Shown: positions 1-33,403 of the stretch, piece after piece | How the letters are laid out: every line of letters starts with the position of its first letter | How positions within the stretch are numbered: position 1 is the stretch's first letter | Source of the DNA: a virus | Length of the DNA stretch: 64,000 bases | IMG/VR virus record: IMGVR_UViG_3300042371_001161 | Span: 1 to 64,000 of that record | Reading direction: 5' to 3' (one strand) | Program-made: the position numbers and the translations under genes | Notes under the pieces: generated by a model | Seen by the model: the letters and a program-made list of their open reading frames with translations, nothing else | Database searches by the model: none | Told to the model about the DNA's origin: nothing

Positions 1-1136
1 GCATCGGCGACCAAGTCGTCAACAGCTTCTGCGAGTTCGTTATTAGATATGGGCGTATCAAAAATGTCCTCGACGGCAGTGTCGGCGGCATCCTGAACAT
101 CTTCTGGAACTTCTATCGGCGGTTCGCTCGTCGTTGGCGTTGTTTCGGGTGGTTCTGTTGGTTTAGGTATCGTTTCTTCAACTGTTTCTTCTGGTGTTGT
201 TGTTCCAACTGGAACCTCCACTTCCGTGGTTGTTGTGGTTTCGGGTTCTGGTTCTGGTTCTGGCTCTGTAGTGGTTGTAACTATTTCTGGTTCTGGTTCA
301 GTAGTAGTTGTGGGTTCTGGCTCTGGCTCGGTAGTAGTTGTGGGTTCTGGCTCTGGCTCGGTAGTAGTTGTAGTACTGGTCGTGGTAGTTACGGCGGTTG
401 TTTCAGAAACCTCATTACTCCAACCTGAATAAACCGAGACAGAATCATTGTCGGCACGAACCTTAAATTGATAGGTGGTTCCTGGTTCTAGATTTTCAAC
501 AACTGCAGATGTGTCCGTAGATGAGATTGCCCAGCCAGAAACCCAATTGTCATTGGAGAAAAAAATGGCATATCTCTCCACTTGGATATTTGACTGTTCC
601 GGAGCGTTCCACGACAAATAAACTTTATTTTCATTACTGGATGTGACTATTAGGTTTTCTGGACTATTTAAATACGGAGCGATAGTCGTAGTGGTAGTGC
701 TAGTGGTGGTTGTGCTGGTACTGGTTGTGGATGGGGTGTTGGTCGGCGTTAAGTCTGATTCGACTACGTAAGATGTTCCATACCACCTCGTAGGGTCCCC
801 GCAGCAAACGCCCGTACGGATGCGATAGGTCCCAGTTGCTTGTACGTTATAAGAGATGTATGAATCAAGACCGTAAAAGTCGTCGTTTGAAGCCAATTCC
901 GTATTATTACTGTCATACAGCCATAGCTGGCTGTCAATACCGTATTGCTGAGCGTAGGTTCTTACGGTAAATGTAGTTCCGGCTTGCAGCTCATAATAAT
1001 AGTCATTGGCGCCATCGGTTGTTAGAGTGCTGGCCTTTAATGGGCTCGAAAAAAAAGAAACAACCGAAAAAATCAAAATAGGTATTATCGCCCATGTGCT
1101 GGGTCGTGGTCTTATATATCTGTTGCCAATTCTCAA
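1..1136 (-). CDS. Partial (runs off window start) secreted or membrane-anchored protein: N-terminal hydrophobic segment, PPC-like domain, FN3 domain, Thr/Pro/Glu-rich linkers
   Basis: Manual translation: TTG at 1136 preceded by GGAGAGG, open to position 1. Reads MRIGNRYIRPRPSTWAIIPILIFSVVSFF..., then DSQLWLYDSNNTELASNDDFYGLDSYI (PPC-like), then PENLIVTSSNENKVYLSWNAP...NLEPGTTYQFKVRA (FN3), then PEPEPTTTTE repeats. Not in the ORF track because the stop lies outside the window. Confidence 0.8.
   Translation of the reverse strand, partial: MRIGNRYIRPRPSTWAIIPILIFSVVSFFSSPLKASTLTTDGANDYYYELQAGTTFTVRTYAQQYGIDSQLWLYDSNNTELASNDDFYGLDSYISYNVQATGTYRIRTGVCCGDPTRWYGTSYVVESDLTPTNTPSTTSTSTTTTSTTTTTIAPYLNSPENLIVTSSNENKVYLSWNAPEQSNIQVERYAIFFSNDNWVSGWAISSTDTSAVVENLEPGTTYQFKVRADNDSVSVYSGWSNEVSETTAVTTTTSTTTTTEPEPEPTTTTEPEPEPTTTTEPEPEIVTTTTEPEPEPEPETTTTTEVEVPVGTTTPEETVEETIPKPTEPPETTPTTSEPPIEVPEDVQDAADTAVEDIFDTPISNNELAEAVDDLVAD
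226..385 (-). repeat. Coding tandem repeat (about 30 nt unit) encoding PEPEPTTTTE linker
   Basis: gtagtagttgtgggttctggctctggctcg-like units repeated about 3-4 times inside the 1-1136 ORF. Confidence 0.8.
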
Positions 1137-9087: not shown

Positions 9088-12113
<3,026 letters not shown>

Positions 12114-12114
<1 letters not shown>

Positions 12115-28552: not shown

Positions 28553-30232
28553 TTATTGAGTCACATCTACTGTCGTGTATGTAAAGCTAATATCCTCAAT
28601 GGATATAATTGGCAAAGAACCCTTGTATCTAAATAGAAGGTCGTCTTCGTATTGCGGCAACCATCCATCTTCGATAGGTGTTAAAGTCAAGGAGTTGACG
28701 TACACAACTCCTGGAATATTGCTAATTAAGGAAACTATTTGATTATGTCGTATTCTGTCAACATTGAGAGGAAAATTCACTGGGCTGAGGTAATCCACGA
28801 GCGTGTCCTCTATCGTTTGAGCAAGAGAATCTTGGTCGTATCGTTGACTTATGGAAATAGTTCCACTAAGTTGAAGTGTTACAAAAGCTGGGTCAACGAC
28901 ATTAATTGTCAATCCAGCAACAGATTTTGATTGTATGTCAGTCAGTATGTTAACTTTTTGCGTCTCCGTCAACAGCGTATTGTTTCCGTAAGCAACAACG
29001 CTCACAAACCCTGAAACATCCTGTCCGGCGTATGCGGAACCACTGATGGTTGCGCTGGCCGACGTGCCAGTCTTGGCAAATCTAAACGTCGTGTCCGTTG
29101 GGACGTGAGTAATAGTGTGCTGACCGCTAAACGAATTTAATCTAACTTTTGTCAAAGCGCCACTGAATGTCGCTGAACCTGATGTTGAGTCTGATACCGT
29201 GAACGTCGTTACGGTTGGAACTGTGTTAATTGTAAATGTTCCGTTGTAACCAGTTGTTAGTCCGACGCCCTCTACGGTTACCGATTGACCGGCCAACAAA
29301 GCATGACTAGTACTTGTTGTATACGTTATGAGAGTGCCGTTACCTGAGGCTGAAGTAATTGTCGAGCCGTTAAAGTCCATTTCAACAACATCCCCAACCA
29401 CGAACAGGTGTGGGGCTGCGGTTGTTATCGTTGCGACAGAACTTTGCACCTGTGTCTGAATGACGCCAATTGAACGATTGACAGTCAAGTCTCCACTATC
29501 AAGGTCGCCATCTGTTAAGTCGTATGTTTTTGCACGTGAGATTATTCCTGGATAGGTAGTCAAGAGATAGGCGTCAACCTGTGATGCTCGGACTAGTGCT
29601 GATGTGAGCGAACGCAGATACGTGGTGGCTTTGGACAGGTAGTCGATGTCTCCGTCGGCGTTGATTCCGTTAGAAAAACTCGATGGAGTGGCAATAACGG
29701 CGGATACGATGTCGGTCCCAGAGGAGATGATATTTAACTCAGTCCCAGAAGCTAGAGGCGGGATGACACCAGGGTCAAGCGATATAACTTTAGCCACTCC
29801 TGATGGATATTCACCCAACTCTGGGTCAACTCCTTCTATTTCGAGAGCAAAAAGCAACACAAATGCGTACTGTTGGGCCTCGTCTTCAAAAAGTGCGTCG
29901 TACGAAAAAGTCGTTCCAGCAGGGATGGTTCCTCCACTATAGGAACCTAGTGTGATTTCGACATTTACTTCTGCAGGGGTCGCTTCTTGACGCTGATACC
30001 CAAGCATTGTGACTATTCCGGCCATAAGTCTGTCTGGCAAGCGATTAATTGCATTTATGTTTAGGGCGCTAATATATGCTGCGGCTTGAAAAATCGCGTC
30101 TTCTGGAGTCCCAACGCGCAGATTGAAGTCGGGCATAGTTAGACGCCCTAGTTCGATGGCGTCAGTGTAAATATCACCTGGCTCTTTGTCAAAGATTGCT
30201 AAGTTAATGTATTCTGAAAAATCTACCGGCAT
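28553..30232 (-). CDS. Baseplate J/gp47-like protein with inserted beta-barrel domains
   Basis: GYQRQEATPA, TIPAGTTF, NGINADGDIDY, LVRASQVDAY, ISNIPGVVYV. Confidence 0.8.
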   Translation of the reverse strand: MPVDFSEYINLAIFDKEPGDIYTDAIELGRLTMPDFNLRVGTPEDAIFQAAAYISALNINAINRLPDRLMAGIVTMLGYQRQEATPAEVNVEITLGSYSGGTIPAGTTFSYDALFEDEAQQYAFVLLFALEIEGVDPELGEYPSGVAKVISLDPGVIPPLASGTELNIISSGTDIVSAVIATPSSFSNGINADGDIDYLSKATTYLRSLTSALVRASQVDAYLLTTYPGIISRAKTYDLTDGDLDSGDLTVNRSIGVIQTQVQSSVATITTAAPHLFVVGDVVEMDFNGSTITSASGNGTLITYTTSTSHALLAGQSVTVEGVGLTTGYNGTFTINTVPTVTTFTVSDSTSGSATFSGALTKVRLNSFSGQHTITHVPTDTTFRFAKTGTSASATISGSAYAGQDVSGFVSVVAYGNNTLLTETQKVNILTDIQSKSVAGLTINVVDPAFVTLQLSGTISISQRYDQDSLAQTIEDTLVDYLSPVNFPLNVDRIRHNQIVSLISNIPGVVYVNSLTLTPIEDGWLPQYEDDLLFRYKGSLPIISIEDISFTYTTVDVTQ

Positions 30233-30248: not shown

Positions 30249-30578
30249 CTATATATCTAATTCAAATGAAACGGAAACTTTGCTAGAGCCGTTTACTGAT
30301 TCTTGGTCAAGTATTTCTATATTTGTTATTATTACTTCTGGAACAAACTGGGAAGCGTTAAGGACAAATATGCTTTTATTTATCAAACGGAATGATGGGT
30401 CATATGCCCCAAATTGGGGGCTCATGGGGTGGGTTCCAGGCTCGGTGAGCATAGACACTGAAAGCAACTGCGAATAGTAATCCGTCGTTGCTTCATCTAG
30501 TTTTGCTAGGCCAGTAGAATCAAATTTAATTGGGAATTTAATTGCTTGCATATTCAATCCTGTCTTTAAACTTTTCAA
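30249..30578 (-). CDS. Baseplate gp25/GpW-like wedge subunit
   Basis: IKFPIKF, LTEPGTHPMSPQFG, FVPEV motifs; position in baseplate module. Confidence 0.7.
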   Translation of the reverse strand: MKSLKTGLNMQAIKFPIKFDSTGLAKLDEATTDYYSQLLSVSMLTEPGTHPMSPQFGAYDPSFRLINKSIFVLNASQFVPEVIITNIEILDQESVNGSSKVSVSFELDI

Positions 30579-30629
30579 TTACCCGAACAAGATGCTCAGC
30601 AATTTTTGGTACTATCAAACAAATAGTTT

Positions 30630-31640
30630 TCATGAGAATCTCCGCACGGGACGGACATAGATTGCGCTGTTCTTGGTGTAGAGGCCCTCATTGCCGTAGA
30701 AGAAGTTCTGGTTCCACGCAGAGGTGGCGCTGAACTCAGAAGAAGTCCAATAGTAGTCAGCCACAAAATCACCAACACCTAGTTGAAGATATAGAACCCC
30801 ATAGATAGTTTTCATCTCTGCGATACTCCCGAGATACCAGTCCGACTGACCGCCAGAAACCAAATCATCACAGTATTTTGCAGCAGAAGTTGCTGGATTT
30901 GTATGCCCTTGGGCAACCATGTCAATGGTGTTTTGATAGCCAGCGCCCAATGCTTTTGAGTCCGCACCGGTAACTGCTATGCTCTGATAGTTTACGGGAC
31001 TTGATGGTGCCCAGCCTCTCTGTACTTGGGTAGAGACTGGGGCTACTTCAAGGTATGTGAATCCGTCGTACTCGTCATATCTGTCAACAAAGAAGATTAT
31101 CCCCCCACCTGGTCCAGTATCGCCGACCTTGTATGTAAATGTTGGAGCAGCTCCAGTTGGTCCTGTTGCGCCCGTATTGCCCGTTGGTCCTGTTGCGCCC
31201 GTATTGCCCGTTGGTCCTGTTGCGCCCGTATTGCCCGTTGGTCCTGTTGCCCCAGTCAGGCCAGTTGGTCCAGCTAGTCCAGTGGGTCCGGCGGGCCCAG
31301 TAGGTCCGGTAGGTCCGGGGTTGTTGCTTATAGATTCAAGTAGGGCATCGTATTGAGCAATCGTTGGGTGCTTGTCGGAGCGGACTCCGGCCGAGCCGTA
31401 TACGATTAGCTCTGTAAAGAATTCATCAGAAAAACCACACTTCACGGAATCCCCGACCGAAAAGTGCGAATTAGGGGTTGTGTTTAGTGGCATTACTTTC
31501 TCGAAAGTTGAGCCGAGCTCCATGACTCTGACCGACACGAAACCTTTTGCGTCCACGGACTTAACTATGCCAGTATAGAACCTACCCGGGACAAGCGGGT
31601 GGGACGATGATTTGTTCCTGCTGACTATATCTGGACGCAT
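30630..31640 (-). CDS. Baseplate central-spike-like protein: N-terminal OB-fold, collagen stalk, C-terminal Lcl/DUF1566-like C-type lectin domain
   Basis: YTGIVKSV...VSVRV...[11 protein letters not shown]-like region; GPT/GAT/GNT repeats; [14 protein letters not shown]...DWYL.SIAEM...YWTSSE...YVRPVRRF. Confidence 0.8.
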
Positions 31641-31681
31641 ATTAATAACCTTACTATTTTGAATGGATTAGCCATTGCTAC

Positions 31682-33403
31682 TTACCAATTACTATCGGAA
31701 CCGCCTGGAGTATTGACTAGTTTCTTTTCATTAAAATTGGGTGTCTTTATCAGCAATACCCACGCTGACTGAATACTCAATAGGTGTCCATAGTCGCGAG
31801 CGTTTCTGACGGCGTCTTCAAATGTGTTCCCGCGCAAAACACCCAAATGTTTGGCCGCGCCTGCAAATCCACCATCAGCGTTGTACCTAGCTATGATTTC
31901 GTCGTTTGTCTTCATGACCGAAGTGCCATTTTGGGTAAAAACACTCGGCAAAAGAATGGCCCTATACTCTGAGCCAGCCTGAACAACATGCGTTATGGAA
32001 TGAATGGTTCGCCACTCGATTACTTCATTTTTCTTGTTTCTTACCACAAAAATAGGGCGATTATAAAGGTCAAGATTTCCCGTAATTATTAGCGAATTAT
32101 AATCATTGGTGCTTGCTGGCATCGGCCCTTTTTCCGCTGCGTACGTTCTAGATATGTTCGCGTAAGGCATTTCTGGATATCTATACACATTGTTCGCATC
32201 GGGCAAATTTGCTCCAGTAATTCTTTTATCAGCAAAGGAGAATTTTATTTCCGGCATGTTTAATATTGCATTTTGCTCAGCAGTCGTCTTTATTTTTTCT
32301 CCTGCTATAAATGTTTGCTGATAAGTGACGCCAATCGGCAGTAGCTCAATTTTTTCTTTTTCTTCGTCACGTGTCAATGTTCTGAAACCTACAGACACGG
32401 GGTCTGGCGTCATTTCGTTAAATGACACAGATTCAACAATGTAATACCCAGACATGTCAGGCACATTGCCAACATAGGCGGTCATTCCTGGCCGTATTTG
32501 TGTGCCGTTGAAACGCTCGACCGAGCAACTGCCTTCTGCCGCATACGGGTCGTTGGCTTTTTTTGTAATGGTTGGCCGTTCCATCAGTCTAAAATACCCC
32601 GATTTCCCGACGTAATCCGGTCCGCTATTTGGCCACTGGAGCGGTATGAATCTCAGGGTGAATGGTGTGCTTTTTGTTTTCTTGGCCTTTGGGTCAAATC
32701 CTGAAAGGTCTACCGTAGTTGTACTTGTCCCCCACTTACTTAGTAAATATTTCTCAGAAGCAAATACTAGAATTCCGTCCACTTCAAACAAAACAAACTT
32801 TGCGTCACCAGCCATTCTTGTCATGACATCCCATAGGGATTCGGTTTGTTTCGAGCCGCTTGCCTTGGTCGTGCCTTTTCCTTTGGCCGTTTGCTCGCAA
32901 TAAAAATCTAATCCATATTTTTTTGCAGCATTAATAATATATTGACTACCGCTTCCCGGTATTGAGCCAGGCTGCTTGTCTCGTTTCATTTGCTGTATGG
33001 CCTTGGAATAGCACTTCAATGAGTACACGGCGCTTCCACCCGGACCCTGAGATACGCTTACATCGGATATTTCAAAAAGCTGTTGTATCGGCTTAATGCC
33101 CCCTGTGCGTGCGTTAATCTGGCCAAGCGTTTGTGTCTCGTAAATGACGTCGCGCCCAAGTATGAAGTAATTCTTTTTAGCCATCTGCAAATCAACATCT
33201 ATGACATCAAAAGATAATTCAGATGCCATAGAAATTGAATAATTAATACTTGCTCTAGTTACTCGTGACGATACGTCGTCGTAAGCTTTATCCGAAAGAC
33301 TTGCAATAATTATTTTGCGTTTATACCTGTCCGGCGACCTAGATATTCTGCCGTATTCATCTGTGGCCGTCTGAGGGGCAAATATTGTATCTGGCGTGTT
33401 CAT
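31682..33403 (-). CDS. Baseplate hub (gp27/gpD-like) with C-terminal extension
   Basis: ASINYSISMASELSFDV, ESLWDVM.RMA...LFEVDG.LVF, IRPGMT...SGYYIVESV. Confidence 0.7.
   Translation of the reverse strand: MNTPDTIFAPQTATDEYGRISRSPDRYKRKIIIASLSDKAYDDVSSRVTRASINYSISMASELSFDVIDVDLQMAKKNYFILGRDVIYETQTLGQINARTGGIKPIQQLFEISDVSVSQGPGGSAVYSLKCYSKAIQQMKRDKQPGSIPGSGSQYIINAAKKYGLDFYCEQTAKGKGTTKASGSKQTESLWDVMTRMAGDAKFVLFEVDGILVFASEKYLLSKWGTSTTTVDLSGFDPKAKKTKSTPFTLRFIPLQWPNSGPDYVGKSGYFRLMERPTITKKANDPYAAEGSCSVERFNGTQIRPGMTAYVGNVPDMSGYYIVESVSFNEMTPDPVSVGFRTLTRDEEKEKIELLPIGVTYQQTFIAGEKIKTTAEQNAILNMPEIKFSFADKRITGANLPDANNVYRYPEMPYANISRTYAAEKGPMPASTNDYNSLIITGNLDLYNRPIFVVRNKKNEVIEWRTIHSITHVVQAGSEYRAILLPSVFTQNGTSVMKTNDEIIARYNADGGFAGAAKHLGVLRGNTFEDAVRNARDYGHLLSIQSAWVLLIKTPNFNEKKLVNTPGGSDSNW

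Follow-up and report, generated by a model that had tools for sequence, protein, structure and literature searches.

A large contractile-tailed lake phage has a central baseplate spike that ends in a lectin head whose extreme C-terminal segment is, judged by its sequence, a DGR-type variable region (VR), and no DGR was found with it. We consider that this patch was probably written by a DGR and is now orphaned, and we regard this as the best reading of the data. The window, i.e., the whole stretch of DNA analysed (64,000 nucleotides), is the first part of the 119,748-bp IMG/VR record IMGVR_UViG_3300042371_001161. The features of the spike locus are collected in Table 1.

Table 1. Coordinates of the spike gene, of its parts and of its neighbours in the window.
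Feature	Position	Strand	Description	Evidence
Baseplate central-spike gene	30630..31640	(-)	336 aa: OB domain, collagen stalk, lectin head	ORF list, Pfam, fold matches
N-terminal OB-fold domain, gpV/gp45 spike type	31326..31640	(-)	residues 1-105	fold matches
Collagen Gly-X-Y stalk	31149..31319	(-)	residues 108-164, including 27-nt tandem repeats (repeat family D10)	Pfam PF01391
Conserved body of Lcl_C/DUF1566 C-type-lectin-fold head	30735..31142	(-)	residues 167-302	fold, profile match
DGR-type variable-region patch	30642..30734	(-)	residues 303-333	codon bias, TR/VR collinearity, column entropy
Recombination breakpoint versus close relative L089	30660..30661	(-)	3′ edge of variable patch	identity drop
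AT-rich hairpin, 6-bp stem, 5-nt loop	30611..30627	(-)	directly 3′ of spike stop codon	folding
Downstream baseplate protein, gp25/gpW position	30249..30578	(-)		phrog_5026 'baseplate protein', E 6.8e-11
Baseplate J-like wedge protein	28553..30232	(-)		Pfam Baseplate_J, E 5e-4, slightly below cut-off

The architecture proposed in the first-pass annotation (an OB-like N-terminus, a collagen stalk and an Lcl/DUF1566-like end with its terminal motifs) agrees with Pfam, with the fold matches and with the sequence. In the Pfam search, the collagen family scored E 2.3e-8 (34.1 bits versus a gathering score of 27.2), and Lcl_C/DUF1566 (PF07603) was matched at residues 250-333 with E 2.4e-10 (41.2 bits versus a cut-off of 34.9); the head also matched a PDB profile with E 1.6e-10. 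Pfam Phage_base_V (PF04717) gave no match to the spike protein of the window at E<=0.01, and is present in one homologue with a different N-terminus. Homologues of the spike protein are annotated by one source as 'baseplate assembly protein gpV', and some homologues of its head carry an Mtd_N domain. Close homologues have collagen stalks of up to 19 triplets or none at all, and in the closest homologues at the protein level the collagen is absent or reduced to a short stretch. A phage contig (L107:8665-11520) and a Spirochaetia contig (L264:9291-12750) each encode 3-5 tandem DUF1566 heads, every one with a different tip. Elsewhere in the window, at 9103-12114 (+), lies a 1003-aa ORF that consists nearly entirely of collagen triplets (Gly-X-Y), in hundreds of 9-nt units, and repeats of this type attract metagenome contigs from many other collagen genes.

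An AlphaFold model of the spike monomer was built with 28 homologues (mean pLDDT 68, and above 80 across most of the head). It shows, in order, the OB domain, a helix, the collagen and the lectin head; the collagen has low pLDDT, and a monomer cannot model collagen. Residues 163-335 of the model matched the C-terminal domain of Legionella Lcl (8q4e) with Z 14.7 and rmsd 2.7 over 124 residues at 30% identity, and the head matched snake-venom C-type lectins with Z 8.4-9.2. Residues 16-92 form an OB barrel, whose best spike match was 9gtr of the Streptomyces CIS (Z 9.5), followed by VgrG 9jg9 (Z 8.9), R2 pyocin 4s37 (Z 8.5), P2 gpV 3qr8 (Z 8.4), Mu gp45 9ki1_V (Z 8.2) and P1 9vzk_q (Z 8.1); generic IF1-type OB folds tie with these six spike structures (Z 8.1-9.5) in the same comparison. 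No beta-helix segment is present in the model, nor a trimeric beta-helix with a membrane-piercing apex.

The OB fold match, the baseplate neighbours and the gpV-named homologues together lead us to accept the protein as the central baseplate spike, in which the model places collagen and lectin where a beta-helix needle would stand. The earlier suggestion of just such a replacement is thus upheld by the phrog_5026 neighbour and the fold matches. As in P2 gpV, Mu gp45 and the R2 pyocin spike, the N-terminal domain is an OB fold (Z 8.2-8.5) and the gene lies directly upstream of gp25/gpW-type (phrog_5026) and weakly J-like genes. In contrast to these spikes, that of the window has no beta-helix or apex domain and continues after the OB domain with collagen and a lectin head. 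The combination of collagen repeats and Lcl_C is that of Legionella pneumophila Lcl, the best structural match of the head; however, Lcl is a secreted bacterial adhesin without an OB spike domain, and to our knowledge it has no DGR-type patch. The OB domain of gpV/gp45 type would anchor the spike in the baseplate hub, and a collagen triple helix carrying the Lcl_C/DUF1566 heads would substitute for the needle. By analogy with trimeric collagen and the known trimeric spikes we would expect three lectin heads per spike, and the spike may act as a trimeric receptor-binding organelle. Two proteins encoded upstream of the spike gene (573 aa and 517 aa) had no family match.

The codon usage of the patch is unusual for this genome. 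In codons 303-331 (nt 30734-30648), 19 of the 29 end in C and 24 of the 29 in G or C. Only 2 of the preceding 14 codons end in C, and the remainder of the spike gene has a C3 of 0.27 and a GC3 of 0.45. The counts of C-ending codons, 19 of 29 and 2 of 14, are exactly those of the first-pass annotation, and the former marks the maximum of the whole record: when 95 long ORFs across all 119,748 bp are cut into 33,081 windows of 29 codons, the patch is the only one to reach 19 C-ending codons (mean 7.2, SD 2.6; C3 of the record 0.245; binomial tail 3.7e-6). This signal is not due to chance. It is also not explained by amino-acid composition, because the excess of C persists within the four-fold codons (31% versus 18%, p 1e-4) and within the two-fold pyrimidine codons (58% versus 40%, p 6e-5).

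The homologue alignment, scanned against metagenome and genome collections, gave about 200 loci. A profile search found a DGR reverse transcriptase (RT) adjoining the homologue at 14 of them. These cassettes come from freshwater metagenomes and Actinomycetota MAGs and have the order target (collagen plus Lcl_C), bAvd, template repeat (TR) and RT, as confirmed by Pfam; their neighbours are cellular (Sua5, OmpA, acetyl-CoA synthetase, ABC transporters). In their TR/VR pairs, 15-21 mismatches fall at template adenines and 0-1 elsewhere, and one cellular TR pairs with at least 5 different VRs across contigs.

In 13 RT-adjacent cassettes both the TR and the VR are collinear, codon for codon, with the patch of the window. 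The TRs encode AW-N-Q-N-F-NN-G-N-Q-NNNN-K-NN-T-N-YVRPVR, and the 26 residues of the window patch that correspond to it have identical spacing on the scaffold AW-x-Q-x-F-xx-G-x-E-xxxx-K-xx-A-x-YVRPVR. At the 12 template AAC/AAT codons the third position in the window is C in 11 and a pyrimidine in all 12 (p 1.8e-6). The corresponding counts of C are 9-10 of 12 in RT-adjacent VRs, 1-10 of 12 in sister phages and 0-10 of 12 in homologues without RT, including 8 of 12 (p 1e-3) in G006, a complete phage genome that has no RT. The third-position signal appears only when it is anchored on template AAC codons. Column entropy among the phage homologues follows the same division, with about 3.0 bits at the 12 template-AAC columns, about 1.5 at scaffold columns and a mean of 1.04 in the body. 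Under an adenine-tolerant metric the cassette TRs are the sequences closest to the patch: at the 45 non-adenine template positions its identity is 91% and 89% with two cellular TRs, as against 69-84% with sister-phage patches, even though the head body groups in a phage-only clade. Lys323, which is invariant, and Gln311, which is conserved, have adenine-containing codons; this was considered as an argument against a DGR and dropped, since genuine TRs encode K (AAG) and Q (CAG) and the VRs keep both.

One of the loci bears on the reach of these cellular DGRs. The chromosomal collagen plus Lcl_C gene L175:9686-10774 has no RT within 10 kb, and its neighbours include MMPL, a catalase-peroxidase and a two-component system. 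Its VR differs from the common TR (that of the L150-type cassette) at 21 adenine positions and at no other, so it is a remote DGR target. The targets of this commonest cassette (L150, L152, L154, L157 and L175, and also L214, L216 and L247) have a GC hairpin (5-bp stem, 4-nt loop) that spans the stop codon, and 3′ of it an AT-rich stretch with repeated CTATTTA-like words. In L175 the hairpin and these words are retained for about 30 nt, after which the sequence diverges, and their persistence in a remote target suggests that they are part of target recognition. BPP-1 likewise has a hairpin after its VR. The hairpin of the window is weaker than the GC hairpin of the cassette targets and differently placed. 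The 3′ end of the patch has a GC-rich run in the VRPVR codons and the AT-rich hairpin past the stop, and an IMH is definable only with a TR. The last 20 nt of this 3′ end are shared exactly with the close relative L089 only, so there is no conservation at the DNA level that would indicate an IMH.

The absence of a DGR from the window, claimed already in the first-pass annotation, is correct and holds for the entire record. There is no match to RVT_1 in its 119.7 kb, and the same search finds BPP-1 Brt as a positive control. Profiles of the DGR RT, made from the cassettes, and of Avd, built from BPP-1 and two bAvd sequences, gave no match to the whole record even at E<=10. The rest of the genome had been named as the place to look for an RT and a roughly 100-nt template repeat, and neither was found in the record: with adenine-tolerant sliding on both strands, the best TR-like copy had 29 non-A mismatches in 101 positions. 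The 51-nt gap between the spike gene and the start of the phrog_5026 gene leaves no space for an Avd-TR-RT cassette. A contig (L313) that overlaps the first 127 nt of the record at 100% identity extends it by 10 kb leftward, and RT, Avd and TR are all absent from this extension; the 14.9-kb record that contains the contig has no RVT_1 match. Thus the sequence around the target is free of RT for about 45 kb on its left and 89 kb on its right. The record is estimated by CheckV to be 71% complete, so some 20-35 kb are unseen even with the extension.

The same result was obtained for related phages and for wider collections. All 24 related phage records, among which are five complete genomes, lack an RT, and two complete phage genomes (G004 and G006), searched over their whole sequences, have neither RT nor TR. 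The viral collection was searched for any template able to yield the patch, using a TR-compatible pattern with a fixed 3′ 15 nt and a degenerate remainder, and gave zero matches. In 401 Nanopelagicales genomes the pattern found one true TR, located in a canonical cassette, with 10 non-A mismatches in 102 positions versus the patch. The best TRs overall likewise have 10 non-A mismatches over 93-102 nt (about 10% of non-adenine positions), as against 0-1 in real pairs. A Nanopelagicales species genome holds a complete small DGR cassette with target end, Avd, TR and RT (L306, G102:C15:1-2550); the literature that we searched does not mention DGRs in streamlined freshwater Nanopelagicales.

Comparison of close relatives shows that the spike tip in this lineage evolves via module exchange between near-identical phages. 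In the IMG/VR contig L001 (10001-11796) the flanking genes are 97-98% identical to the window at the nucleotide level, and the OB domain and collagen of the spike are kept; however, the lectin head has been replaced by a 27-residue tail, and after this tail comes a distinct ORF of 417 aa, made up of about nine beta-propeller-like repeats of ~43 residues each. L089 is 97-100% identical to the window from nt 30660 downward; in the patch the identity is only about 50%, and for the head body it amounts to 75-80%. The Baseplate J-like protein is 94-97% identical in both relatives. The closest complete relative, G424 (156 kb, with terminal repeats and no RT), has a spike with no part other than the OB domain (124 aa, 61% identity; G424:C1:57062-57379, L318). 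This minimal spike makes the heads look like later additions.

A tree of the head body, built without the patch, places the window in a supported clade of 18 rows, in which the rest are viral contigs except for one metagenome contig. All RT-adjacent targets in the tree form a separate clade together with homologues from Nanopelagicaceae, Acidimicrobiaceae and Ilumatobacteraceae MAGs. Within the phage clade, where no RT is found, fresh patches occur on two branches, with C at 11 of the 12 template-AAC codons in the window and at 10 of 12 in L090; their sisters have 1-8, and the nearest sister phages of the window 5-6 of 12.

How variable is the patch at present? In 24 lake-water metagenome runs, each holding 0.99 of the sampled 31-mers of 30250-31700, the allele is constant, and in four runs a single contig covers 30250-31185 with 0 differences to the window. 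The assemblies break only in the collagen repeat (four runs). Small contigs at 30723-30775 in two runs were considered as VR variants and rejected, because they come from relatives and their match is confined to the conserved segment that lies upstream of the patch. These are contig-level data, which drop rare variants, and the runs may all derive from a single lake campaign and be the very source of the record, so the constancy argues against brisk diversification only. Diversification at low frequency, as in BPP-1, would escape a comparison of contigs.

Of the first-pass statement that the segment is a current or former DGR target, the DGR-type VR itself stands, with its TR/VR collinearity and with NNC codons at template AAC, and 'former' is the better word; 'current' is unsupported. 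Unsupported, too, is active diversification of the patch: against the claim that the phage now diversifies its spike stand the lack of RT, Avd and TR in 119.7 kb plus 10 kb, the lack of RT in the 24 related records and the constant contigs, which are for the most part the findings named in the first-pass annotation as refuting it. With neither RT nor Avd nor template in its sampled DNA, the phage as sampled cannot itself have written the patch. We infer that a DGR wrote this very patch, and likewise the time of writing. In the orphan reading, which we favour, cDNA from an AAC-rich template repeat with randomised adenines would have set NNC codons on a fixed scaffold in the last ~31 codons of the head. 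An ancestor may have been the place of the writing, but a donor is more likely, and recombination would then have imported the head or its tip from this donor; alternatively to import, access to the DGR may have been lost, with ordinary evolution since. The patch would now be a fixed allele, altered by ordinary mutation and by whole-head swaps at the collagen and YVRPVR junctions. Apart from the unseen part of the genome and the limits of contig-level data, two observations count against this reading. In freshness the patch looks equal to active VRs (11 of 12, versus 5-6 of 12 in its nearest sisters), which points to recent writing and not to an old relic; and the searches gave no donor whose head or template matches, the TRs that come nearest being about 10% off at non-adenine positions.

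This freshness relative to the sisters keeps alive two readings with a working DGR. If the spike were rewritten in trans by a DGR outside the phage, on the host chromosome or on a co-infecting element, then host machinery would diversify the tropism of the phage. Fresh patches on two branches of a clade without RT, next to decayed sister patches, would fit this, as would the remote reach of the cellular DGRs of the collagen plus Lcl_C family (L175), the cassettes for such targets in freshwater Actinomycetota and the TR of the same type in a Nanopelagicales genome; Avd-TR-RT functions were moreover active in trans from a plasmid (Wu et al. 2018, PMC5758913). However, no sampled TR fits the patch, the window lacks the GC hairpin and downstream motif that accompany targets of the common cassette, and the allele is constant in the 24 runs, so that we hold rewriting in trans to be unlikely. 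The broader proposal, that spike tips of RT-less phages are rewritten in this way by DGRs of freshwater actinobacterial hosts or by co-infecting elements, appears a little more doubtful still. Alternatively, the DGR may lie in the unsampled part of the phage genome, the spike being its current non-adjacent target. The incompleteness of the record and the fresh look of the patch leave room for this, and phage DGRs can reach targets tens of kb away (PMC5758913). Nevertheless, nearly all phage-associated DGR targets are within 50 kb of the RT (PMC5758913), as against no RT over about 45 kb and 89 kb here; neither the phages of the spike-head clade nor the genome-level relatives, five complete genomes included, have one, and the contigs show no variation. 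We consider this quite improbable.

A patch shaped without any DGR, by ordinary diversifying selection on a receptor-binding loop and with C-ending codons from composition or chance, would agree with three results. K/E/Q/M/W are not depleted in the variable columns (0.118 versus 0.132 in variable body columns), many RT-less homologues are at background C3, and conservation of third positions across all homologues was not found. The last of these, among distant homologues, is due to saturation of synonymous sites. On the other hand, 19 of 29 is the genome-wide maximum, composition does not account for the enrichment within four-fold and two-fold codons, and the C positions coincide exactly with the template AAC codons of real DGRs. 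Such an origin seems to us very improbable.

DUF1566-class DGR targets, remote targets and phage receptor-binding targets are already known. The DUF1566/CLec2 class corresponds to category 'd' of DGR variable proteins, with the Legionella DGR target as an example (Wu et al. 2018, PMC5758913). The patch of the window resembles the targets of this class in Pfam family, in fold, in the extreme C-terminal position of the VR, in scaffold spacing and in NNC at template AAC; it differs in having no cognate TR, RT or Avd in the sampled DNA, in its position on a phage baseplate spike and not on a cell-surface protein, and in being a fixed allele in the sampled population. With Mtd of BPP-1 it shares the C-type-lectin-fold tip with a variable patch and, as far as its role can be predicted, the function of a phage receptor-binding protein. 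However, Mtd belongs to podovirus tail fibres and has the avd-TR-brt cassette directly downstream, whereas here a contractile-tail central spike is followed after 51 nt by a baseplate gene. The DGR of Treponema denticola has multiple remote targets. Like these, the spike gene bears a VR without an adjacent cassette; but remote targets lie in the same genome as their DGR and agree with its TR outside the adenine positions, and in the sampled DNA neither is true of the spike gene. The literature that we searched has nothing on orphan variable regions, on central baseplate spikes with a DGR-type patch, or on phage clades in which such patches occur without any DGR. Because surveys of DGRs start from the reverse transcriptase, target-like genes in genomes without RT go unseen.

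At this locus a contractile-tail spike appears to be built for binding instead of piercing, and close relatives swap its heads freely. A whole clade of lake-phage central spikes bears DGR-type patches without any DGR found, and the closest template-like relatives of these patches are on the chromosomes of abundant freshwater Actinomycetota. Either DGR-written binding sites move as ready-made modules between cell and phage by recombination, or DGRs cross genome boundaries. If rewriting in trans were true, host hypermutation machinery would drive the change of phage tropism, and the fresh NNC patches on separate RT-less branches would be its footprints. Both readings bear on the natural evolution of phage host range.
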